DNA of 64,000 nucleotides, from contig JACPIH010000003.1 in assembly GCA_016188155.1 (NCBI GenBank), positions 2,033 to 66,032 on the forward strand. The letters are read 5' to 3'. This document shows positions 3,122 through 37,502 of this stretch, one piece after another. The notes under the pieces are model-generated. The model had not been told where the DNA came from. It did not search any database and saw nothing but the letters and a program-made list of their open reading frames with translations. Both the position numbers and the translations under genes were made by a program. This stretch comes from Candidatus Woesearchaeota archaeon. GTDB lineage: Archaea; Nanobdellota; Nanobdellia; Woesearchaeales; UBA10216. How positions within the stretch are numbered: the stretch's first letter is position 1; each line of letters begins with the position of its first letter.

Positions 3122-3223
3122 GTTGCCAAAACTATATTAGCCATAACTCATGATAGAATTTCTAGCTGCGGGTGGTGTAAATTCAAAAGCATCAATCGCA
3201 GTTGGTATAAGTTTTATATAAAT

Positions 3224-4060
3224 CTAAGGCCGGCCTGTCTTGTCATAAATGGTCTTAAGCATCACCGCATCGCCCTCAATGTTCGGGCTTTCGCTTATCA
3301 CAACGCCTTCTATTTTAAATTCCTTCCAGCTTTTGACAACAGCATCATATTTTAAATCCGATTCCTTTAAAGTCAGGTGATTCAATTCTCCCTTATCGCT
3401 GTATCTGACTCCTGCTATCTGGATGTGCATGTTTTTTAGTGCCTCCTTTCCAAGCTCTTTCTCAACCAGTGAAAGCATTTCTAAAAACTCCCCGTAGCTG
3501 TTGTTATTGCTCTCCCTTGCGTGCATGTGCGCGTAGTCAATGCACGGCAGTACCTGCTCTATCTCGTTGCACAGCCGCAGTATCTCTGACAAATCCCCAA
3601 ACTGGCTTCTTTTGCCTGTTGTCTCAGGCCTCACCCATATGCCGCAGCCAATGTTCCTCACTTCGGCAACTACGGCAGCCAATTCTTTTTTGACTTTCTC
3701 ATACACCTTCTCCTTGTCATTGCCCAGATAATATCCGGGATGGAACGCAACGCTTTTCCCTCCGCACAGCCATGCAACTTCCGCAGCCTTTACCAGCCGT
3801 TTCTTGCTCGCTTCAAGCTTTGCATCCTCAGCAGCATTCAGGTTAATGTAGTAAGGAGCGTGGCACGTTAGCATAACATTCTCTTTTTCGGCTACAGCCT
3901 TTATTTTAGGTGCATTCTCCCTGCTTATATTTACAGACTGCACGAACTCAAGCTCCATTGCATCCAGCCCAAGCCCCCTAACAGCTTTTATCCCGGAAGC
4001 CGTATCTGTCCCTTTGGCTGCCAGAGGGATGCCTGCAGTACCAAACAATAGCTTTGTCAT
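3224..4060 (-). CDS. nfo: Endonuclease IV / AP endonuclease 2 family (xylose-isomerase-like TIM barrel)
   Basis: MTKLLFGTAGIP..., HAPYYINL, AFHPGYY, ...IDYAHMHA, typical Nfo metal-ligand motifs. Start moved to MTK (4060) because the longer ORF overlaps the upstream gene. Confidence 0.75.
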   Translation of the reverse strand: MTKLLFGTAGIPLAAKGTDTASGIKAVRGLGLDAMELEFVQSVNISRENAPKIKAVAEKENVMLTCHAPYYINLNAAEDAKLEASKKRLVKAAEVAWLCGGKSVAFHPGYYLGNDKEKVYEKVKKELAAVVAEVRNIGCGIWVRPETTGKRSQFGDLSEILRLCNEIEQVLPCIDYAHMHARESNNNSYGEFLEMLSLVEKELGKEALKNMHIQIAGVRYSDKGELNHLTLKESDLKYDAVVKSWKEFKIEGVVISESPNIEGDAVMLKTIYDKTGRP

Positions 4061-4701: not shown

Positions 4702-4956
4702 TTATAGTATCTTCTCTCCGTTGTCCTTATTTTTTAAATGAATGACATTTACAGGGCAGGATTCTGCTGCAGCCTTGTCGTCTTCAAAATCGCCCTGTTC
4801 AATCTCGAGCTCCTCCCAGCCGTCAGGCCTACGTGGTGCTCCAATTATGTCTGCCTTGTTGTCGTCGTTCATTACCCAGTGTTTCGGGTTTACTGCGACG
4901 CATGCCGCGCATCCGATGCAGTTCGGCCTGTCATGCTCAAGCAGGTATTTTGTCAT
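4702..4956 (-). CDS. Small single-cluster ferredoxin
   Basis: CIGCAACVAV....CPV motif. Start set at MTKYLLEH (4956) because the longer ORF start reads through the repeat at 4961..4993. Confidence 0.65.
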   Translation of the reverse strand: MTKYLLEHDRPNCIGCAACVAVNPKHWVMNDDNKADIIGAPRRPDGWEELEIEQGDFEDDKAAAESCPVNVIHLKNKDNGEKIL

Positions 4957-4960
4957 TTTC

Positions 4961-4993
4961 GTTTTTTGGTTGAGCTTTTTATTAAAAAGGTCA
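4961..4993 (+). repeat. Hairpin repeat family, copy 1 (GTTTTTTGGTTGAGC-CTTTTT-atta-AAAAAG-GTCA)
   Basis: The first 20 nt are identical to copy 2 at 15503. It exactly fills the gap between the sufC stop and the ferredoxin start. The TCA at its right end (4991..4993) is the sufC stop codon. Confidence 0.8.
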
Positions 4994-8631: not shown

Positions 8632-10044
8632 TCATCCGATGGCCCCTATCATGTCGAGTTGTATGAGCCTGTTGAGCTCTACGGCATATTCCATTGGAAG
8701 CTCCTTCATTATCGGCTCTATGAATCCTGATACGATCAACTTGACAGCATCTTCCTCTTTCAGGCCCCTGCTCATCAAATAGAATATCTTTTCCGTGCTT
8801 AGCCTGCCTACGGTTGCCTCATGCGCTATTTCAACCTTCTCTTCATTAATGTCCATTACCGGGACTGTGTTTGATTTTGATTCCTCATCCATTATCAGCG
8901 CATCGCAAACAGCGCTTACCCTTGAGTTTGTAGCTCCCTTTGCCACCTTCACGAGGCCCCTGTATGTCGTGATTCCTCCGCGGCTGCTGATGCTCTTCAT
9001 TTTTATCGTTGAGGAAGTGTTTTTCGCGAGGTGGTAGACCTTTGCGCCTGTGTCCTGGTTCTGGCCTTTTCCGGCATATGCTATGCCCAGGTGGTCAGCC
9101 CTGGCTCCTTCTCCTTTCAGTATGCTGCACGGGTAGAGCATGGTCCCTTTAGAGCCTGCGTTCCCTCCTACCCATTCAACAGTGCCATTTCTTTCAACAA
9201 CAGCCCTTTTTGTGTTGAGGTTGTAGGTGCTCTTGCTCCAGTTTTCAACGCTGCTATACCTGACCCTGGCTCCCTCTTTAACATAAATCTCTACTCCCCC
9301 TGCGTGGAGTGAATTGACATTGTACTGCGGCGCACTACAACCTTCAATGTAGCTTATCTCGCTGAATGGCTCAGCCACTATGAGCGTGTGCTCGAACTGC
9401 CCTCCCTTTTTAGCGTTCATCCGGAAGTATGCCTGCAGCGGCATTGTTATCTTTACGCCTTTTGGAACATAGATGAATGTTCCTCCAGACCACACAGCGG
9501 CATGCAGCATAATGAGCTTGTGGTCACTTATCGGTATGCACCTTGTCATGAAGTATTCCTTGACCAGTTCGGGGTATTTCTGCACAGCAACGTCCATGTC
9601 CTCAAAGATTACGCCCTTCTCTTCCCACTCCTTCTTCAGGTTGTGGTAAACTACAGAACTGTCATACTGCGCCCCGGCACCGGCAAGCGCCTTTCTTTCT
9701 GTTTCAGGTATTCCAAGCATGTCAAAGGTTTTCCTTATCTCTTCCGGCACCTCTTCCCAGTTTTTCGTCTGGGCTGCGTCAGGCCTTGCATAGTAAACCA
9801 GCCCGTCAAAATCTATTCCGCTTAGGTCAAGCCCCCAGTTTGGAAGTGGGGTTTTCTTGAACCACTCATACGCTTCCAGCCTTTTCTTTAGCATCCATTC
9901 TGGTTCGTTCTTGTCCTTGGAAATTGCCCTTATGACTTCCTCGCTCAGGCCTTTCTCCTTTACAAGGTAGTTCTCCGGCTGCCTGAGCGTGTGAATCTTC
10001 TCAGCAGCATCCTCAATCTGCGCCATGAGCTCCTGGTTTGTCAT
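8632..10044 (-). CDS. sufB: SufB
   Basis: 470 aa; IEGCSAPQY, HEATVGRLSTEKIFYLMSRGL. Confidence 0.85.
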   Translation of the reverse strand: MTNQELMAQIEDAAEKIHTLRQPENYLVKEKGLSEEVIRAISKDKNEPEWMLKKRLEAYEWFKKTPLPNWGLDLSGIDFDGLVYYARPDAAQTKNWEEVPEEIRKTFDMLGIPETERKALAGAGAQYDSSVVYHNLKKEWEEKGVIFEDMDVAVQKYPELVKEYFMTRCIPISDHKLIMLHAAVWSGGTFIYVPKGVKITMPLQAYFRMNAKKGGQFEHTLIVAEPFSEISYIEGCSAPQYNVNSLHAGGVEIYVKEGARVRYSSVENWSKSTYNLNTKRAVVERNGTVEWVGGNAGSKGTMLYPCSILKGEGARADHLGIAYAGKGQNQDTGAKVYHLAKNTSSTIKMKSISSRGGITTYRGLVKVAKGATNSRVSAVCDALIMDEESKSNTVPVMDINEEKVEIAHEATVGRLSTEKIFYLMSRGLKEEDAVKLIVSGFIEPIMKELPMEYAVELNRLIQLDMIGAIG

Positions 10045-15472: not shown

Positions 15473-15502
15473 TTTTTGCTCAGTTTTCCGTTTGACCTCC
15501 TC

Positions 15503-15586
15503 GTTTTTTGGTTGAGCTTTTTCGCAAAAACCCAAGTCGTGTCTTACACGACTGGGCCCATTCGCTGCAGGCGAATTGGGGGTCAC
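15503..15586 (+). repeat. Hairpin repeat family, copy 2, carrying the nested double-hairpin module
   Basis: GTTTTTTGGTTGAGCTTTTTCGCAAAAA, then the module, then GGTCAC. The TCA at 15583..15585 is the tfs stop codon. Confidence 0.8.
15531..15580 (+). repeat. 50-nt double-hairpin module, copy A
   Basis: CCCAAGTCGTG-tctta-CACGACTGGG followed by CCCATTCGC-tgcag-GCGAATTGGG. Confidence 0.8.
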
Positions 15587-15909
15587 CCGTACTCCCTCCA
15601 CTTGTGCTTGCAGATGGTGCACTGGTGAAACTTGGTTTCGCCTTCGTCTCCTGCCCTTGTTTGCCTTGTCCAGTAGTATGCCTTGCTGTTGTGGCATTTC
15701 GGGCACTCAGCATCAGTCACTGGCGCGTTGACCTTCTCCTCTGCCGCAGCTTCAAAGCGCCTTTCCTCGTGCTTTGGCTTTTGCTTTATTTTTTCGGTTA
15801 TCTTTGCAGAATCAGTATCGCTGCTTGAATAGCCGCAGCTGCACTTGAGCTGGGCTTTTCCCTCAACGTTTTTCGGCACAAGTATTGAGCCGCAGTCCGG
15901 GCAGAACAT
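15583..15909 (-). CDS. tfs: Transcription factor S (TFIIS / RpoM-like)
   Basis: N-terminal Zn ribbon MFCPDCGS...CSCG. C-terminal ribbon CPKCHNSKAYYWTRQTRAGDEGETKFHQCTICKHKW. Confidence 0.8.
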   Translation of the reverse strand: MFCPDCGSILVPKNVEGKAQLKCSCGYSSSDTDSAKITEKIKQKPKHEERRFEAAAEEKVNAPVTDAECPKCHNSKAYYWTRQTRAGDEGETKFHQCTICKHKWREYG

Positions 15910-15911
15910 TC

Positions 15912-16505
15912 TTATCCCCTTATGGCTTTTATGATGTCTGTGAAAATTATCTTTACGTAGCCGACGTATGGCACCCTGAGCCACCCTTTGCCCAGTATCC
16001 TGTCCTGGCTTATTTCCCTTTCCTCATCGCGCTGGCCTGCGTTCCTGTCGCCCTTTGTCGCAAAGTAGTATTTGCCTTCGGATTCCCACTTGCTTACCGC
16101 TCTGTGTATTATCGGCTCAGGGCTTCCTGCCCTGAAGACAACGACATCACCAATGCTTATGTCTTCCGGCTTCTTTCCTTTGAGGATTATTATGTCTCCC
16201 TTGTTAAATCCGGTGCTCATCCTGAAATTCATAAAATCCTCTTTTGTTATGTTATGCTTTTCGTAAAAGGGTTTCATGCTTTCCCACCACGCATCAAACT
16301 CTGCCTGGTGCTGCATGCTGTCGCTTATTACCGCTACAACAGGGTAGTTTGTCTGGAGTATCAGCCCAAGCCCTGGGTAGACTAAGAATTTGATTATGGC
16401 AAAGGCAAGCGCCGCATTAATGAGCCAGCTCCATATGCTGTTGTCGTTCCACAGGAACTTCCATACTCTTTTGGTAACATTCTTTACCGTCTTCGTAGCT
16501 GCCAT
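15912..16505 (-). CDS. Signal peptidase I, archaeal/Sec11 type (S26B)
   Basis: N-terminal TM, VISDSMQH (catalytic Ser), GDIIILKG, GDVVVF, IIHRAV, TKGDRN. Start set at MAATKTV. Confidence 0.75.
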   Translation of the reverse strand: MAATKTVKNVTKRVWKFLWNDNSIWSWLINAALAFAIIKFLVYPGLGLILQTNYPVVAVISDSMQHQAEFDAWWESMKPFYEKHNITKEDFMNFRMSTGFNKGDIIILKGKKPEDISIGDVVVFRAGSPEPIIHRAVSKWESEGKYYFATKGDRNAGQRDEEREISQDRILGKGWLRVPYVGYVKIIFTDIIKAIRG

Positions 16506-16512
16506 TTTTATC

Positions 16513-16597
16513 GTTTCTTGATTGACCCCCAAGTCGAGGCAAGCTCGACTGGGCCCAGTCGGCGCAAGCCGACTTGGGTTCTTAGCAAGAAGGTCAC
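16513..16597 (+). repeat. Hairpin repeat family, copy 3 (TTTCTTG variant), carrying the nested double-hairpin module
   Basis: GTTTCTTGATTGACC, then the module, then TTCTT-agc-AAGAA-GGTCAC. Confidence 0.75.
16528..16578 (+). repeat. 51-nt double-hairpin module, copy B
   Basis: CCCAAGTCGAG-gcaa-GCTCGACTGGG followed by CCCAGTCGGC-gcaa-GCCGACTTGGG. Confidence 0.8.
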
Positions 16598-16642
16598 GCT
16601 GGCTCCGCAACAAATAAAAAGGTATCGCTTTTCCCTTTTGCT

Positions 16643-23869: not shown

Positions 23870-23943
23870 AGTGGGAACGGCCGGATTTGAACCGGCGACT
23901 CCACCGGCTTCAGCGGTGTGCTCTCCCAGGCTGAGCTACGTTC
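23870..23943 (-). tRNA. tRNA-Phe (GAA), no encoded CCA
   Basis: Minus strand GGGAACG-TA-GCTC-AGCCTGGGA-GAGC-A-CACCG-CTGAAGC-CGGTG-GAGTC-GCCGG-TTCAAAT-CCGGC-CGTTCCC-A folds as a canonical cloverleaf. Confidence 0.9.
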
Positions 23944-23970
23944 CCGATTAAGCAACTTGGCATTTTGAGC

Positions 23971-23994: not shown

Positions 23995-24030
23995 GCGTTT
24001 TTTGATAAACCTTTTTCGCCAAAAAGGTTT
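23995..24030 (+). repeat. Hairpin repeat family, copy 4 (no nested module)
   Basis: GTTTTTTGATAAACC-TTTTT-cgcc-AAAAA-GGTTTTG. Near-identical to the flanks of the purL copy. Confidence 0.8.
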
Positions 24031-24072
24031 TGCTGCAGCCGCAACTATGATGGGAACTGTGCTAAAATAGAA

Positions 24073-31959: not shown

Positions 31960-32936
31960 CCCCTCAAATATCCCTTCTTGATTAAGTTTTGCCTTATCCT
32001 TTCTGTCGGGTTGCCCGCGACAGCCCTGAATTTCTGCCCCGTAACCAATTCGTAAGCCTCAATGTATCTTCTCGCTGCTTCCACTCTTACATCATCAGGT
32101 ATTTTTGGAACTGGCCCTTCGCCAACAAATCCCCTATCAGCAAGCCATTTCCTCACATATTCCTTATCAATCTTCATTTGCTCCTTGCCTGTCTTGAAAA
32201 GCTCTTCATATGAGTCAGAGAACCAGAACCTTGAGCTGTCCGGCGTGTGCACTTCATCAATCAGTGTTACCTTGCCATTCTCATCATAGCCAAACTCGTA
32301 TTTGGTGTCCACAAGTATTATGCCTTGTTTTGCCGCTATTTTTTGGCCCAGCTCAAACAGCTTCATGCTCACTTCTGCTATTTTGTCAAACTCCTCTGCA
32401 GTAAGAAGCCCTTTTCTTATCACTTCAGCCCTTGATACGGACTCGTCGTGCAGGCCTTTTTCAGCCTTCGTTGATGGCGTCAGCAGCGGCCTGGTTAGTT
32501 TTTGGTCCTTTCTCAGTCCTTCAGGCAGTTTGTGGCCGCAGAACTCCCTTGCACCCCGCTCGTAATTGTACCATATCGAAGTCGTGGTTACCCCTGTGAT
32601 ATAGCCGCGAACAACAAACTCCACCATTATTGGCTTGCAGTTCCTTGCTACGGTCACGTTCGGGTCAGGAATGTCAATAACCGCATTATTGGCTATGTGC
32701 TTTGTTTTTTCAAACCAGAACTGGCTCATCTGGTTCAGGACCTGCCCCTTGAACGGCAGCGTTGTAAGCACGACATCAAAGGCAGATATCCTGTCAGTGG
32801 TTACCATTATCCTTCTGTCGTTGAGTATGTAGTTGTCCCTTACCTTTCCAAAGTACTTTTTGGCTTTGCCAAAGTCAAAGTTTGTCTTTTCAAGCGTGCT
32901 TTTCAGTTGCCGCTTCAGGATTTCAGCATCTATCAT
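31956..32936 (-). CDS. purC: SAICAR synthetase (long form)
   Basis: GKVRD...DRISAFD, VDTKYEFG. Confidence 0.85.
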   Translation of the reverse strand: MIDAEILKRQLKSTLEKTNFDFGKAKKYFGKVRDNYILNDRRIMVTTDRISAFDVVLTTLPFKGQVLNQMSQFWFEKTKHIANNAVIDIPDPNVTVARNCKPIMVEFVVRGYITGVTTTSIWYNYERGAREFCGHKLPEGLRKDQKLTRPLLTPSTKAEKGLHDESVSRAEVIRKGLLTAEEFDKIAEVSMKLFELGQKIAAKQGIILVDTKYEFGYDENGKVTLIDEVHTPDSSRFWFSDSYEELFKTGKEQMKIDKEYVRKWLADRGFVGEGPVPKIPDDVRVEAARRYIEAYELVTGQKFRAVAGNPTERIRQNLIKKGYLRG

Positions 32937-33718
32937 CTTTCATTTACCTCTTTGTCAGCTTCTTCAACCTTTAGTCGCATGCCCCACCGGTATTCCTTGA
33001 GCTTGTCGTTTTTCCTCATTATCTCGGCAGCTGCAACTGCCGCGTTCTCTCCCCTGTTGAGGCCTACCCATATCCCTTTTTTGGTTAGCTGCAGCAGCTT
33101 TACAGCATCATTGGCTGTTTCCTTTTCTGCTGTTGGGCAGTTTATCACTATCGCACTTTCAGAAATCATCCCTTCTTTTTCGTTGATGCTGATAAAGCAT
33201 ATGTTTATGGCGGTTTCTAGCACCTTGTTTCCAAGGCTGTGCTCAATTTCAAGTTCCTTCAGTGCTTCTGTGGCTTTGTCAACTGCCTTTTGGGCATTGC
33301 CGTGGTCAACTATGTTTATTCTTTTCATCTTGTTTTTTGCAATCATAGCGGCTGCCATGGCGGCTTCTTCAGCATTGTTTACTCCTGTCGTCAGCACAGG
33401 TATTCCTGGTGGCATCTGGATTATTGACAGCAGTGCATCAAGCCCTTCAAACGCCCCCATAAGGGGAACTCCTATAACTGGTGCAGTTGTTTTTGCAGCC
33501 ACAACACCTGGCAGTGCAGCCGCAAGCCCTGCAGCAGCAATTATTGCGTCGTATTCCACTTCTTCAATGATTTTGTCCAGCATTTCCGGCGTCCTGTGTG
33601 CAGAGCAGACCCTCATCTTGTGTTCAACACCGCTTTTTTCAAGGGCTGCCGCGGCTTTCTCCATTATCCCAACGTCAGATTTGCTTGCTGCAATTATTAG
33701 CACTGCCATTTTCGTCAT
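32933..33718 (-). CDS. purE: PurE (CAIR mutase family) with an extra degenerate PurE-like half-domain at the C-terminus
   Basis: SDVGIMEKAA, RVCSAHRTPE, AGLAAALPGVVAA.T..PVIGVP. About 100 extra residues partly repeat the N-terminal pattern. Confidence 0.8.
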   Translation of the reverse strand: MTKMAVLIIAASKSDVGIMEKAAAALEKSGVEHKMRVCSAHRTPEMLDKIIEEVEYDAIIAAAGLAAALPGVVAAKTTAPVIGVPLMGAFEGLDALLSIIQMPPGIPVLTTGVNNAEEAAMAAAMIAKNKMKRINIVDHGNAQKAVDKATEALKELEIEHSLGNKVLETAINICFISINEKEGMISESAIVINCPTAEKETANDAVKLLQLTKKGIWVGLNRGENAAVAAAEIMRKNDKLKEYRWGMRLKVEEADKEVNER

Positions 33719-33721
33719 CCT

Positions 33722-34513
33722 TTACATCAGCTTGCTCTCAGCATACTCCACCATGTTCCTGAATATCCTCAGCCCGTCGCCTTCATCAGGCAGGTTCTCC
33801 CGTGTCCATCTCGGATGGGCGTATTTTGTGACAAACTTCTCCGGGTGCGGCATCATTCCAAACACGTTGCCTTCCCTGTTTGTTATTGCCGCAATATTCA
33901 GCTGGGAGCCATTTGGGTTGTATGGGTAGGCTGCGTTATCCATGCCGCTTTCGTCAGCATACCTCAATTTTATCAGCTTTTGCTTCCGAAGCTGTCCTAT
34001 GACCTCATTACTGGCAACAAACTTTCCCTCACCGTGGTTGACTGGCAGGTAAATCCTCTTTATTCCTCTTGTGAAGATTGAATCGTTTTCAGCTTTCATC
34101 CATACCCAGCGGTCCTCGAATTTCCCGGAATCGTTGTTTGCAAGTGTGGCCTCCTGCATAAACGTTCCTTTAAGTGCAGGCAGCAGACCCATTTTTATAA
34201 TTACCTGAAACCCGTTGCATATTCCAATTGCGAGTTTTCCTGCAAGGACAAAGTTTTCAAGCTGCTGTTTGAGCTTTATTGCCAGCTGGTTTGCTAACAC
34301 CTTTCCGCTGCCAAGGTCGTCGCCGTAGCTGAACCCTCCAGGAATCGCAAGAATATGATAATCGTTAATTTCTTTGCGGCCATGAATTAACTCGTTAACG
34401 TGTACCTGCTCGGCAGCAGCCCCAGCCAGCTCAAAAGCCAGTGCTGTCTCGTTGTTGCAGTTTGTGCCAGCTGCCCTTATCACGAGTGCTTTCGGTTTTG
34501 TTTTAGCTGTCAT
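33722..34513 (-). CDS. purQ: FGAM synthase glutaminase subunit
   Basis: GICNGFQ, HGEG, MMPHPE. Confidence 0.9.
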   Translation of the reverse strand: MTAKTKPKALVIRAAGTNCNNETALAFELAGAAAEQVHVNELIHGRKEINDYHILAIPGGFSYGDDLGSGKVLANQLAIKLKQQLENFVLAGKLAIGICNGFQVIIKMGLLPALKGTFMQEATLANNDSGKFEDRWVWMKAENDSIFTRGIKRIYLPVNHGEGKFVASNEVIGQLRKQKLIKLRYADESGMDNAAYPYNPNGSQLNIAAITNREGNVFGMMPHPEKFVTKYAHPRWTRENLPDEGDGLRIFRNMVEYAESKLM

Positions 34514-34514
34514 G

Positions 34515-37502
34515 CTAGTACCTTAGTGTTTTCTGCCACGCTTCCTTTAATTCCTTGATATCCGCATCAATTATTTTCCCTGCGCTTCCGCGGATTACAA
34601 GATGCTTTCCTTTCGTCTTACCAATCATACCATAATGGCAGCCATGCTTTTTCATGGTGCCTTCGAACATTGCCTCCTTCCCTTTCTCTACTTCAGCAAT
34701 AAACCTCGTTTGCGATTCCGAAAAAAGTACAATTTCACCTCCGTTTTTTGATAAACCCCAAGTCGACTGCTGTCGACTGGACCCAGTCGAACTTTGTTCG
34801 ACTTGGGCTTTTTCGTAAAAAGGTTTTGTGTGGGGAACGTTCCGCAGCTCGACCTCAGCCCCGATTCCGCCTGCAAAGCACATCTCGGTCAGTGCAACGG
34901 CCATGCCTCCTTCGCTTATGTCGTGGCATGCGAGGACAATTTTTTCCTTTATCGCTTCTTCGACAGCAGCGAATGTCGCTTTGCTTTTCGCAGCATCAAT
35001 CGTTGGCACATTGCCCGATTCTAACCCTAAACCAACTAATTCACTGTAGTGGCTGCCTCCCATCTCGTCTTTTGTTTCGCCTATCGCGTAAATGCTGCTT
35101 CCTTCTTTTTTTATGTCCATCGTTACTATGTCGTCTACGTCGTCAATAACGGCAACGGCCGAAATTAGCAGCGTATCAAGTATCGGTATCTTCTTTCCAT
35201 CGCTGACAACCTCGTTGTGCAGGCTGTCCTTCCCTGATATGAAGGGCGTTCCGTAGGCTGTTGCAAAGTCTTTGCACGCCTTGGCAGCCATGACAAGCGT
35301 GCCAAGCCTTTCGGGCTCGTCAGTGTTTGCCCAGCAGAAGTTGTCAAGTATTGCTGTTTTGCCCAGGCTTCCTCCTGTTGCCACAATGTTCCTCAGCGCC
35401 TCGTCTATTGCGGCAGCCGCCATCCAGTACGGGCTTATTATTCCGTAGCGTGGGTTTATTCCGTTGGCAACAGCTAGCCCTTTTCTGCTTCCGAAGACTG
35501 GCATTACAACTGATGCGTCGCTTGGTCTGTCATTGGCAGCTCCGGTAAGGGGCTTTATTATCGTGTTTGCCTGCACTTCATGGTCATATTGCCTTATGAC
35601 CAATTCCTTGCTCGCTATTGATGGCATTCCTAATAGTTTCATTAAGGTTTCATCGTAGTTACTGCCGCTAAGCTTCCTCCGTTGCAGCTGCTTCTGTTGT
35701 GTTTTCGCTTTTTTCTCCCTGTAAACCGCTTTTCTTTTTTGTTTTGGCAGACCATTGTGCAGAAAGTCCATGCTGAGTTCAGCAGCAGTTTTTCCGTTGT
35801 GCTTCACTACAAGCTTTTTTGTTGCCGTGAAGCTTCCAATGACAGCAATCCCTGCCCCTTCCTTTTCGCAAATCTCTTTGAGCTTTTGCAGGTTTTTCTC
35901 AGGCACGGAAACAACCATCCTTTCCTGCGATTCTGAGAGCCATATCTCCCACGGCTTCATTCCGGAGTGCTTCAAAGGGACTTGTGACAGCTCAACCTCT
36001 GCGCCCAGTTCGCGACCCATCTCGCCAACTGCCGAGCTGAACCCTCCTGCCCCGCAGTCTGTAATGGCGTTGAACAGCTTCCTGTCTCTTGCTTCGAGTA
36101 TTGTGTCAAGCATTTTTTTCTCTTCGATGGCGTTTCCTATCTGGACAACTGATGTGGTGAGGCCTTCGTTAAGCTCTGTGCTGGAGAATGTTGCTCCGTG
36201 CAGCCCGTCCTTGCCTGTTTTTCCTCCAACAACAACGATAAGGTCTCCTGGTTTGGGGCTTTTCTTGATAGCCCATCTCGGCATTATTCCTGCTGTTCCG
36301 CAGTATACGAGCGGTGCAAGGTAGCTGTTGTGGAATGTTATTGAGCCGTTTATCGTTGGTATGCCCATCCTGTTGCCGTAGTCGCGAACGCCAGAAACCA
36401 CGCCCTTAAGCGTCCGTTTTGGGTGCAGCACGCCTTTCGGCAGCTTTTCATTGTAGTCTGGGTTTGCAAAGCAGAAGACGTCTGTGCTGAATATTGGCTT
36501 TGCGCCCAATCCTGCACCGAGCACATCCCTGATTACGCCTCCGATGCCTGTGCCCGCTCCCCCATAAGGGTCAAGGGCAGACGGGTGGTTGTGAGTTTCG
36601 ACCTTGAATGCGATGCAGTTTTCTTCATCGAATTTTATTATGCCGGCATTGTCCCTGAAAACAGAGATTAAGTTGTCTTTCCACTCCTTCCTTTTCGCAA
36701 TTTCGTTTGTTGCGGCAACTATGGTTTCCCTGAAGAGGTTGCTGATTGTTTCTGTTGTTTTTTTCCCGCCGCCATCATAAAGTTCAAGCCCGATTTCACT
36801 GTTGAATGTTTTGTGCTTGCAGTGCTCGCTCCACGTCTGCGCTATTGTTTCAAGCTCTGCGTCTGTTGGTTCCCTTCGCAGCTTTTTGAAGTGCGTCTGT
36901 ATCGCCTTCATCTCTTCAAGCGATAGGGAAAGAACGTTTTTTTGGCTTATTTTCCTGAGCTCGGCATCTGACGCTTTCCTTATTTTTACTGCGGCAACTG
37001 GCTCACCGTTTTCCGCGGCTGCTGCCGTTTCTCGCTTTAGGAAAGAGCTTACGTTCACGTGCTCAAAGCCGTAGCCGTATTGCTGCGTGTTCTCGTTTGC
37101 AAGCAGCCCTTCGCAAATGGCCTTTACCTGTTCCTCTGTGGCGTTTCTTATGGCGTATTTCTGCATTATTGTTGCCGACTCTGCAGCTAACCCGATATCC
37201 TCGACAAGCTTTAGGGTGCTCTGCTCAACAGGGTCTGTTATTTGCGGCTTATACCTTACTATGGCCACCCACGCGCCTTTGGAATAAAGCTGGTTGTTTA
37301 TGCCAAACTGCTGGACTACCTGGTCGCTCATTGCCCTGGCTATCGTTTCTGCTTCCTTGGTGCTGTAGCTTCCCTGAATAACATAGATGTCGCTTGTCTC
37401 AGCTACTTCAGCTTTCAGGCCCAGGTCTTCATTTATTGCCTTCTGGAGCCCTTCCTTTCTTACGTCCTTGGATGTTTCTTTCGTCTTTATCTCAATCCAC
37501 AT
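34515..37502 (-). CDS. purL: FGAM synthase PurL fused to N-terminal PurS-like domains; contains an in-frame repeat-derived insertion near the C-terminus
   Basis: ETHNHPSA, DCGAGG, SESQERM, LFSESQTRF. See the finding at 34739..34831. Confidence 0.9.
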   Translation of the reverse strand: MWIEIKTKETSKDVRKEGLQKAINEDLGLKAEVAETSDIYVIQGSYSTKEAETIARAMSDQVVQQFGINNQLYSKGAWVAIVRYKPQITDPVEQSTLKLVEDIGLAAESATIMQKYAIRNATEEQVKAICEGLLANENTQQYGYGFEHVNVSSFLKRETAAAAENGEPVAAVKIRKASDAELRKISQKNVLSLSLEEMKAIQTHFKKLRREPTDAELETIAQTWSEHCKHKTFNSEIGLELYDGGGKKTTETISNLFRETIVAATNEIAKRKEWKDNLISVFRDNAGIIKFDEENCIAFKVETHNHPSALDPYGGAGTGIGGVIRDVLGAGLGAKPIFSTDVFCFANPDYNEKLPKGVLHPKRTLKGVVSGVRDYGNRMGIPTINGSITFHNSYLAPLVYCGTAGIMPRWAIKKSPKPGDLIVVVGGKTGKDGLHGATFSSTELNEGLTTSVVQIGNAIEEKKMLDTILEARDRKLFNAITDCGAGGFSSAVGEMGRELGAEVELSQVPLKHSGMKPWEIWLSESQERMVVSVPEKNLQKLKEICEKEGAGIAVIGSFTATKKLVVKHNGKTAAELSMDFLHNGLPKQKRKAVYREKKAKTQQKQLQRRKLSGSNYDETLMKLLGMPSIASKELVIRQYDHEVQANTIIKPLTGAANDRPSDASVVMPVFGSRKGLAVANGINPRYGIISPYWMAAAAIDEALRNIVATGGSLGKTAILDNFCWANTDEPERLGTLVMAAKACKDFATAYGTPFISGKDSLHNEVVSDGKKIPILDTLLISAVAVIDDVDDIVTMDIKKEGSSIYAIGETKDEMGGSHYSELVGLGLESGNVPTIDAAKSKATFAAVEEAIKEKIVLACHDISEGGMAVALTEMCFAGGIGAEVELRNVPHTKPFYEKAQVEQSSTGSSRQQSTWGLSKNGGEIVLFSESQTRFIAEVEKGKEAMFEGTMKKHGCHYGMIGKTKGKHLVIRGSAGKIIDADIKELKEAWQKTLRY
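34743..34828 (+). repeat. Hairpin repeat family, copy 6, with the nested double-hairpin module, located inside the purL coding sequence
   Basis: GTTTTTTGATAAACC, then the module, then CTTTTT-cgt-AAAAAG-GTTTTG. Flanks match copy 4. Confidence 0.85.
34758..34807 (+). repeat. 50-nt double-hairpin module, copy C
   Basis: CCAAGTCGAC-tgct-GTCGACTGG, a, CCCAGTCGAAC-tttg-TTCGACTTGGG. Confidence 0.85.

Follow-up and report, generated by a model that had tools for sequence, protein, structure and literature searches.

Two nested palindromic repeats in frame within the purL gene of a Candidatus Woesearchaeota archaeon

How a gene for purine synthesis can carry a composite hairpin repeat within its coding sequence and still read without a stop is the question raised by purL on contig JACPIH010000003.1 of a Candidatus Woesearchaeota archaeon. 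The stretch analysed, called the window here, comprises 64,000 nt (positions 2,033 to 66,032 of the contig, forward strand). The gene lies at 34515..37502 on the minus strand and encodes a PurS-PurL fusion of 995 amino acids, as identified from the list of open reading frames (ORFs), BLASTP and Pfam. The insert is explained here as a tolerated, translated loop insertion of selfish palindromic repeats, acquired in two steps from two families, termed element A and element B. The probability of this explanation is put at about 0.8.

Extent and composition of the insert

The Pfam domains FGAR-AT_linker, AIRS and AIRS_C were present in the window PurL, and its nearest homologues in BLASTP were PurL proteins from metagenome-assembled genomes (MAGs) of Candidatus Woesearchaeota, with identities of 84% and below. 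A codon model trained on the genes of locus L001 gave the ORF a score of +437, in its own frame only. The ORF has no stop within the repeat and reads ...GIGAEVELRNVPHTKPFYEKAQVEQSSTGSSRQQSTWGLSKNGGEIVLFSESQTRF..., and the protein around the site is ...VELRNVPH-TKPFYEK-AQVEQSSTGSSRQQSTW-GLSKNG-GEIVLFSESQTRF... The whole composite insertion, A with B nested inside it, occupies 34741..34828 (minus strand), is about 87 nt long and encodes approximately residues 891-922 (T-KPFYEK-AQVEQSSTGSSRQQSTW-GLSKNG). PFYEK and AQVEQSSTGSSR are the tryptic peptides predicted from it.

The insertion consists of three pieces, all on the minus strand. The 5' part of A, CAAAACCTTTTTACGAAAAAG (34808..34828), contains the 5' arm, the loop ACG and the start of the 3' arm; the A element in purL of L001 has the same sequence here, and the copy at 23997..24030 matches it. 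Element B, a 51-nt double hairpin of the sequence CCCAAGTCGAACAAAGTTCGACTGGGTCCAGTCGACAGCAGTCGACTTGGG, follows at 34757..34807 inside the 3' arm of A and is one of 84 copies. The 3' part of A, GTTTATCAAAAAACGG (34741..34756), contains the end of the 3' arm and an A-rich tail. It is also identical in purL of L001, and it agrees in 16/16 positions with 23996..24011 on the plus strand. Read on the plus strand, this flank is CGTTTTTTGATAAACC at 34742..34757, and the other flank, CTTTTTCGTAAAAAGGTTTTG, matches the remainder of the same copy near 24012..24035 and is nearly identical to it. The flank pattern was matched five times in the window, compared with 0.57 expected from shuffled sequences, and the two halves of the core pattern were matched five and four times, compared with 0.00 expected. 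The architecture of the core at 34757..34807 is common to the modules at 15531..15580 and 16528..16578.

An earlier note on this DNA, made from the letters alone, had placed a composite hairpin repeat at 34739-34831, translated in frame without a stop, with flanks like the copy at 23995..24030 and a core like the modules at 15531..15580 and 16528..16578. The open frame and both sets of matches were recovered, and the repeat-derived stretch agrees with the proposed span to within 3 nt. The repeat is composite and in frame, as described, but it consists of two separate nested elements, which the note had missed together with the intermediate preserved in a relative.

The centre of the purL copy of B is GGGTCC, while most copies of the family have GGGCCC. 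If this difference reflects a substitution made after insertion, as it may, the copy is not entirely new; alternatively, the copy may derive from a variant source.

Occupied and empty sites in orthologous genes

An alignment of 23 PurL proteins, as had been proposed for defining the insertion, showed no insert in 20 of them, with 0-8 residues at the site. The sister protein P0002, which is 84% identical to the window PurL by BLASTP and 86% in the alignment, is among those lacking it. In P0005 (L001), A alone occupies the same codon, and the PurL reads HTKPFYEK-GLSKNG. The DNA of this gene reads CACACC-AAACCTTTTTACGAAAAAG|GTTTATCAAAAAACGG-TGACGAA, and these 35 nt of A are also present in the window, where they are interrupted at the bar by exactly 51 nt of B. 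L001 preserves the empty site of B exactly, with ACGAAAAAG|GTTTATC compared with ACGAAAAAG-B-GTTTATC in the window. Relative to the empty site AAAAAG|GTTTATC, 51 nt were added and either 0 or at most 1 nt (G) was duplicated; this is the sole exact pair of an empty and a filled site.

A third occupied allele was present at the same site in purL of L030 (MAG nzgw63). It contains an A element of a different subfamily (ATGACC...GGTCAATC) and an independent 48-nt B that is read in another frame, and the resulting peptide is ..IPHTSMTFLQK[PKSRALDWAQSQQRLG]GQSKNGDEIMLF.. On the PurL tree the three occupied alleles do not group as closest relatives, so A was gained more than once, was lost several times or was recombined. 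The series from an empty site to A only and to A with B, the last in two independent versions, shows a stepwise build-up of inserts in a protein loop.

PurL serves as a host of A or B at three sites. A copies were also found in frame in the linker between PurL domains, at 11831-11861 of L080 (P0010; ..QQRDLFGKKVNQKRDYN..) and at 4813-4844 of L084 (P0004; ..QQHDLFKKKVNQKTSYN..), so PurL carries repeat insertions at no fewer than three (at least 3) different sites across the clade. A 51-nt insert, CCACAATTCAGCAGCGAGCTGAATGTGCTATCGACCTCGGGTCGATAC, encoding the peptide IPQFSSELNVLSTSGRY, was observed at codons ~150-170 of purL in L083 (P0007). It forms two hairpins and deviates from the B consensus; decay of a B copy or membership in a different subfamily may account for this.

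Position in the protein and state of the gene

In the structure of T. thermophilus PurL (3VIU), residue 888 of the window PurL corresponds to residue 647 of the chain and residue 925 to residue 652. The flanking strands are 4-5 residues apart in 3VIU and 36 residues apart in the window PurL. Together with the 0-8 residues of the orthologues, this confirmed the statement in the earlier note that the flanking motifs are normally only a few residues apart. The insert lies in the C-terminal AIRS_C domain, at a short turn of variable length. A structure prediction, also among the checks proposed for a surface loop, was made with AlphaFold2 on an alignment of 23 sequences, and the mean predicted local distance difference test score (pLDDT) of 71.6 was moderate overall. 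Residues 894-920 were modelled as coil without secondary structure at a pLDDT of <50, and the blocks of 10 residues adjoining the insert had values of 92 and 93-96. The model supports, but does not prove, a disordered loop at a tolerant turn.

The ratio of nonsynonymous to synonymous divergence (dN/dS) between purL and the sister gene in L079 was 0.13 over the full length and 0.07 in the 74 codons downstream of the insert. These 74 codons are in frame and had a coding score of +18.4. The gene is part of a long purine-synthesis gene cluster that is syntenic with relatives. purL is under purifying selection on both sides of the insert.

In the region 600-300 nt upstream of the insert, purL of the window and of L079 were 92% identical; downstream, the identity fell to about 80%, and there the window gene is no closer to L079 than to L001. 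The proportion of synonymous differences (pS) to L079 was 0.68 downstream of the insert and 0.39 over the whole gene. A recombination breakpoint may lie near the insert, judging from these identities. Import of the 3' end of purL from the P0005 clade was also considered, and the identity profile gave no clear donor.

Anatomy of the two elements

Element A is a hairpin of about 37 nt. In the sense of purL, its stem is (A/G)ACCTTTTT / AAAAAGGT(T/C), with a loop of 3-4 nt and a tail (A/T)ATCAAAAAAC. In the window, A is intact at 4961..4992 and 23997..24030 and is split by a core at 15502, 16512 and 34741. In all A copies the stem TTCTT/AAGAA was combined with the tail CAAGAAAC and the stem TTTTT/AAAAA with the tail CAAAAAAC, as seen when L013 (3734-3765) is compared with L010 (3687-3718). 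This association could reflect linkage within subfamilies or an alternative pairing of the 5' arm with the tail.

Element B has the structure CCCAAGTCG-v1-CGACTGGGNCCAGTCG-v2-CGACTTGGG, where v1 and v2 are variable, and forms a double hairpin, 51 nt long in purL. In the consensus, two mirror-image hairpins with a 1-nt bulge apiece make up a perfect palindrome; hairpin 1 is CCCAAGTCG-v-CGACTGGG and its mirror image, hairpin 2, is CCCAGTCG-v-CGACTTGGG. The ends CCCAAGTCG ... CGACTTGGG form a perfect terminal inverted repeat of 9 nt. The lengths range from 46 to 53 nt and are mostly 48 or 51 nt. The covarying stem positions were paired in 167 of the 168 hairpins of the 84 copies (G-C 96, A-T 57, T-A 14), and the variable stems had on average 1.84 paired bp, compared with 0.53 in shuffled sequences. 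The hairpins are therefore real features of B. The purL copy folds as two hairpins in the sense of the mRNA. All three B copies of the window are located within an A element, where its A- or T-run meets the GGT/ACC of the stem.

Distribution, reading frame and target of the family

Copies of B were collected by an exact-pattern scan of one genome per species, in which the ends CCCAA.../...TTGGG were fixed by the search pattern. The 77 stretches found came from about 8 MAGs, of which six are labelled Candidatus Woesearchaeota and originate from groundwater and two are labelled 'uncultured Methanosarcinales'. With L001, L082 and the window, about ten genomes carry B; JACPTF, JACPCV, JACPBX, JACPIJ and JAHFTU are among the MAGs concerned. 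The window and the fetched loci, about 0.7 Mb in total, contain 84 distinct copies of B, and 31 intact copies of A were counted in the census besides those split by B. No match to the B pattern was obtained in viral contigs. Only tRNA-Phe was detected by Rfam at gathering thresholds in the whole window, and a permissive Rfam search of 34650..34920 gave one sub-threshold match to a lncRNA (long non-coding RNA), which was taken as chance.

The repeat had been regarded as intergenic apart from the purL copy. This was not borne out, as A and B often lie inside genes of related genomes. Hosts of B confirmed by Pfam are AspRS, the CCA-adding enzyme, a GT4 glycosyltransferase, a homologue of staphylococcal nuclease (SNase), an MBL-fold protein, Toprim/DnaG-like, DAC-domain and PAP2 proteins, and an intein inside a PilB-like ATPase. 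In these proteins the Pfam domains flank the B insert on both sides or span it.

For the reading frame, a first count in which 14/14 in-gene copies were multiples of three was discarded, as the criterion had demanded one continuous frame and was circular. In the replacement test the two flanks were scored independently with the codon model trained on L001. All seven internal in-gene B copies were in frame and none broke it; if the frame were irrelevant, about 0.31 of the copies would be expected to be in frame and stop-free, and 7/7 corresponds to a P of ~3e-4. Three apparent frame shifts were gene junctions, at which the upstream ORF continues across B and ends 4-7 codons further on. Read-through of B or of A with B at junctions was observed in L055 (7278-7325), L029 (5463-5510) and L008 (1881-1929), where the repeat forms a new C-terminal tail. 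FolD with such a tail has 300 amino acids in this MAG, compared with 281-284 in relatives.

Over all six reading frames of the B copies, 92.5% were stop-free, compared with 61% in shuffled sequences. The length was divisible by three in 56/84 copies, whereas 38.5% was predicted from independent hairpin lengths (a calculation made by hand); outside recognised genes the corresponding count was 41/69 against the same 38.5%. Stop-free frames and lengths of this kind fit a family that is filtered by, or suited to, coding DNA. Of the intact A copies, 5/31 were in genes, and all in-gene A copies seen had the sense orientation; the opposite orientation has TGA in two of the three frames. A role of A as a promoter cassette for leaderless genes, prompted by three window copies immediately 5' of start codons, was rejected, as only 4/31 copies lie directly 5' of a gene.

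When the flanks of B were oriented, position -2 was A in 71/75 cases, position -1 was A or G, and positions +1 and +2 were purines. A-like flanks surrounded 24 of the 84 copies (~29%).

A copy of B was observed in frame inside an intein (Intein_splicing, LAGLIDADG_3) of the PilB/T2SSE-like ATPase at 2604-2654 of L019, a selfish element within another.

Proposed origin of the insert and alternative explanations

In the explanation favoured here, A would first have come to occupy the short, length-variable turn in the AIRS_C domain of PurL, and a 51-nt B would then have inserted into the A-run of the 3' arm of A, with no target duplication or one of at most 1 nt. B would have landed in A through its preference for purine runs (RAA^RR), which are offered by A hairpins. 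Since both pieces are in effect multiples of three and stop-free in the frame of purL, the mRNA would be read straight through the insert by the ribosome. The protein would gain about 30 hydrophilic residues rich in Gly, Ser and Pro as a disordered and presumably harmless surface loop, and the enzyme would remain functional. The segment would presumably be present in every cell of the population, and A and B would be, or would have been, mobile by means of some enzyme. The inverted ends, the lack of a clear target duplication and the short one-sided target recall, by analogy, single-strand transposition of the IS200/IS605 or REP/RAYT type (insertion sequences, IS; repetitive extragenic palindromic sequences, REPs, and REP-associated tyrosine transposases, RAYTs).

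Several points weigh against this account. A was not a clean insertion, as HT-SGIT-DEI was changed to HT-KPFYEKGLSKNG-DEI and 12 nt were replaced by 36, which makes an origin of A by simple transposition uncertain. The A segment is identical in 35/35 positions between the window and L001, whose purL genes are 77.5% identical; this is unexpected under neutral vertical descent and hints at recombination or at a constraint on the element. The structural model, with its mean pLDDT of 71.6, rests on 23 sequences only. Metagenome scans gave no match to the window purL allele or to any A-bearing allele, a look-up of the PurL of the window itself gave no entry, and the window allele rests on one contig. 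No transposase or other mobilising enzyme was found by Pfam among ten poorly characterised window genes or in a weak tblastn search of 0.69 Mb of related DNA. In this search, with an IS608 TnpA sequence as query, one weak match was obtained in L043; it lies inside a large ORF of 607 amino acids resembling a surface protein and was judged spurious.

Selection might instead have kept the element in purL, either for a role at the DNA or RNA level, such as a structured RNA or a protein-binding site affecting the downstream purQ, or as an exapted peptide. The 35/35 identity of the A segment is in favour of this, as are the ~98% identity of the A+B composite after the TFS-like gene in the window and L039 (adjacent gene 84-85%), the occurrence of an A element at the same PurL turn in three genomes, the persistence of B copies at orthologous sites with flanks only 62-85% identical, and the enrichment of lengths divisible by three outside recognised genes (41/69). 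A function of this kind is nevertheless considered unlikely. Most PurL orthologues, including the nearest, have no insert, and the three occupied alleles differ in A subfamily, B copy and frame and hence share no conserved peptide. The variable parts of orthologous B copies, 73.5% identical, diverge about as fast as the flanks, and the seemingly perfect conservation seen in the constant parts arises from ascertainment by the search pattern. Moreover, with 4/31 copies directly 5' of a gene, A is not tied to gene starts.

The earlier note had listed a tolerated loop, removal at the RNA level and a recent inactivating hit as possible readings. The first was favoured by the orthologues without insert, the turn in 3VIU, the low-pLDDT coil, the purifying selection and the in-frame copies elsewhere, and the other two fared poorly. 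Excision from the pre-mRNA, whether by the archaeal splicing endonuclease or by some other process at the RNA level, might be expected from the strong structure of the region (two hairpins with perfect stems, minimum free energy -57.3 kcal/mol, z = -2.0), and archaea are known to splice a few pre-mRNAs at bulge-helix-bulge (BHB) motifs, as in the case of cbf5 (PMC2738675). However, the arrangement of helix, 3-nt bulge, 4-bp helix and 3-nt bulge was absent from both border pairs, where the fold consists of two plain hairpins, and candidates at the ends of B arose only when complementary bases of a continuous helix were counted as bulges. A loose BHB scan of the mRNA gave 118 hits, compared with a mean of 72 and a maximum of 112 in shuffled sequences; the scan was too permissive and is only weakly informative. 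Removal of B alone would leave A in the message. Furthermore, every internal in-gene B is in frame and stop-free, which excision does not demand, and at gene ends the frame runs on through the B copy to a nearby stop. Excision is therefore regarded as highly improbable.

Just as little weight is given to inactivation of purL, which would make the gene a recent pseudogene. B belongs to an apparently mobile family, about 30 added residues in an enzyme domain could be harmful, and the allele is known from one assembly only; but the 995 codons contain no frameshift or stop, the 74 downstream codons remain in frame with a coding score of +18.4 and a dN/dS of 0.07, the site is a variable turn, and otherwise conserved PurLs of two further genomes have retained insertions there. 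The off-consensus centre GGGTCC also speaks against a very recent event if it is a later substitution, though it may come from a variant source copy. An assembly artefact, in which repeat reads from elsewhere were collapsed into purL, has even less to recommend it and is extremely unlikely. The contig is metagenomic, the repeats are multi-copy and the metagenome scans did not recover the allele from another assembly. Against this, the junctions are located exactly at the usual target of B in the A hairpin and the product is in frame, MAGs that were assembled separately have the A-only allele (L001) and the independent A+B allele (L030) at this codon, and repeats of 51 or 87 nt are shorter than a typical read, so that single reads should span them.

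Signs of possible transfer between lineages

The B copies in the N-terminal part of purL in L001 (10030-10080) and L082 (10030-10080) were 51/51 identical at the same codon, within an identical run of 64 nt. These two purL genes come from different clades and share only 73% identity. In L080, the sister of L001 (87% identical), the site near 10028 is empty and the adjoining 12 nt differ. This suggests that the allele may have been transferred as a patch by recombination. The A+B composite after the TFS-like gene was about 98% identical between the window (15492-15590) and L039 (~3166-3265), compared with 84-85% for the adjacent gene, and the synteny of the two loci ends at this composite, beyond which they could not be aligned. 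In orthologous pairs of B the variable parts were 73.5% identical and the flanks 62-85%, and most of these pairs look old and vertically inherited. The 100% conservation of the constant parts among orthologous copies was set aside as an artefact of ascertainment by the exact search pattern.

Taken further, A and B might be an undescribed pair of repeats specialised for life within genes in the small, gene-dense genomes of DPANN archaea, with A as landing pads for B and with occupied alleles spread between diverged Woesearchaeota lineages by recombination into the same codon, for which the identical run of 64 nt in the N-terminal part of purL is the evidence; this is offered tentatively. If true, it would mean homing-like behaviour of a 51-nt non-coding element and convergence with the palindromic elements of Rickettsia.

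Comparison with known elements

The Rickettsia palindromic elements (RPEs) are multi-copy palindromic repeats of ~100-150 bp that occur in frame in housekeeping genes (Ogata et al. 2000, as summarised in PMC10969869 and PMC3733652), and their peptide products are regarded as fitting the fold of the host protein. The elements described here share with RPEs a dispersed, multi-copy palindromic family in a small gene-dense genome, with in-frame copies in unrelated, conserved housekeeping ORFs that are not destroyed; for purL, the one gene in which this was examined, the insert was also absent from orthologues and located at a tolerant site. They differ in host and size, as RPEs are bacterial and ~100-150 bp long, while B has 46-53 nt, A has ~37 nt and both occur in DPANN archaea. 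They differ also in that A and B nest, one being the landing site of the other, and in that the B consensus is itself a perfect palindrome of two hairpins. Sequence membership in RPE families was not found for A and B, which are 37 and 51 nt long, are hosted by Woesearchaeota MAGs and have no match in Rfam. To our knowledge, no sequence relationship between RPEs and A or B is to be expected, and none was seen.

REP/RAYT systems have been described for bacteria. REPs are short imperfect palindromes, often in inverted pairs and mostly intergenic with some in genes, and different REPs are found at about the same site in orthologous recB genes of Xanthomonas (PMC3733652). B resembles an inverted doublet of one hairpin unit, as in REPs and their paired form, REPIN, and its stems covary; the PurL turn, like Xanthomonas recB, is occupied by different elements in orthologues. 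However, REPs bear a GTAG or CGTC end tag and are associated with RAYTs, whereas the ends of B are CCCAA/TTGGG. No GTAG or CGTC tag abutting the ends of B was present in the flank profile, and a weak search of the ~0.7 Mb of loci at hand gave no RAYT-like gene.

Like MITEs, the miniature transposable elements with inverted repeats, B is small and non-coding, has inverted ends (CCCAAGTCG / CGACTTGGG) and occurs in many dispersed copies. Classical MITEs are 70-300 bp long and have target-site duplications, in contrast to the one empty/filled pair of B, which has no clear duplication. B recalls IS200/IS605 in showing no clear target duplication and in preferring a short target on one side, but the end hairpins of these elements have the same orientation on one strand, whereas the two of B are mirror images. 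In the loci examined, B had no identifiable parent IS or transposase. The BHB introns, such as that of cbf5 (PMC2738675), are likewise short structured inserts in an archaeal ORF that are absent from orthologues; the purL insert differs by having no BHB motif, by in-gene copies that respect the frame and by its dispersed, mostly intergenic family.

The behaviour of A and B is that of RPEs and intragenic REPs, but they do not belong to those families, being set apart by their size and sequence, their end motifs and the domain of the host. The literature available as full text, subscription journals not being covered, gave no account of such elements in Woesearchaeota or other DPANN archaea. Selfish palindromic repeats in frame in essential genes are best known from Rickettsia and a few other bacteria, and the present results suggest that the same has apparently arisen in DPANN with reduced genomes. 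For annotation, genes with such inserts should not be labelled pseudogenes or assembly errors, and the extra peptides of 16-31 residues are derived from repeats and are not lineage-specific domains. The results raise the questions of whether some copies pass between lineages and by which enzyme a 51-nt double hairpin would be moved into purine runs with no duplication of the target.

Other copies in the window and minor observations

The second B of the window (15531..15580, 50 nt, strand not assigned) is located 2 nt 3' of the stop of the TFS-like gene and within an A element (15502..15530 and 15581..15587). The gene at 15583..15909 matches the Pfam family Zn_ribbon_TFIIS, and the orthologous B copy in L039 is identical in 49 of 50 positions. 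The third B (16528..16578, 51 nt, strand not assigned) is also within an A element (16512..16527 and 16579..16598) and lies upstream of the minus-strand gene 15912..16505. The two intact A elements of the window contain no B and are both on the minus strand. One of them, AAACCTTTTTGGCGAAAAAGGTTTATCAAAAAAC (23997..24030), lies about 50 nt upstream of tRNA-Phe (23871..23945, minus strand). The other, GACCTTTTTAATAAAAAGCTCAACCAAAAAAC (4961..4992), precedes the ATG of a ferredoxin-like gene (4702..4956; Pfam Fer4_15) by 4 nt.

The CAZBFZ01 and CAYUOQ01 loci (for example L002, L003, L029 and L043), labelled 'uncultured Methanosarcinales', share the B family of the Woesearchaeota; the label may be wrong or the bins mixed. 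L039 and L069, on different contigs of JACPIJ01, align to 15583-16503 of the window at 84% and 78% identity, and this bin may hold two related genomes. A stop-free ORF of 475 amino acids at 32502-33929 (plus strand) is antisense to purQ and to a purE-like gene with an AIRC domain, and the codon model scored it as non-coding. Long antisense ORFs such as this one make naive gene calling by ORF length unreliable in this genome.

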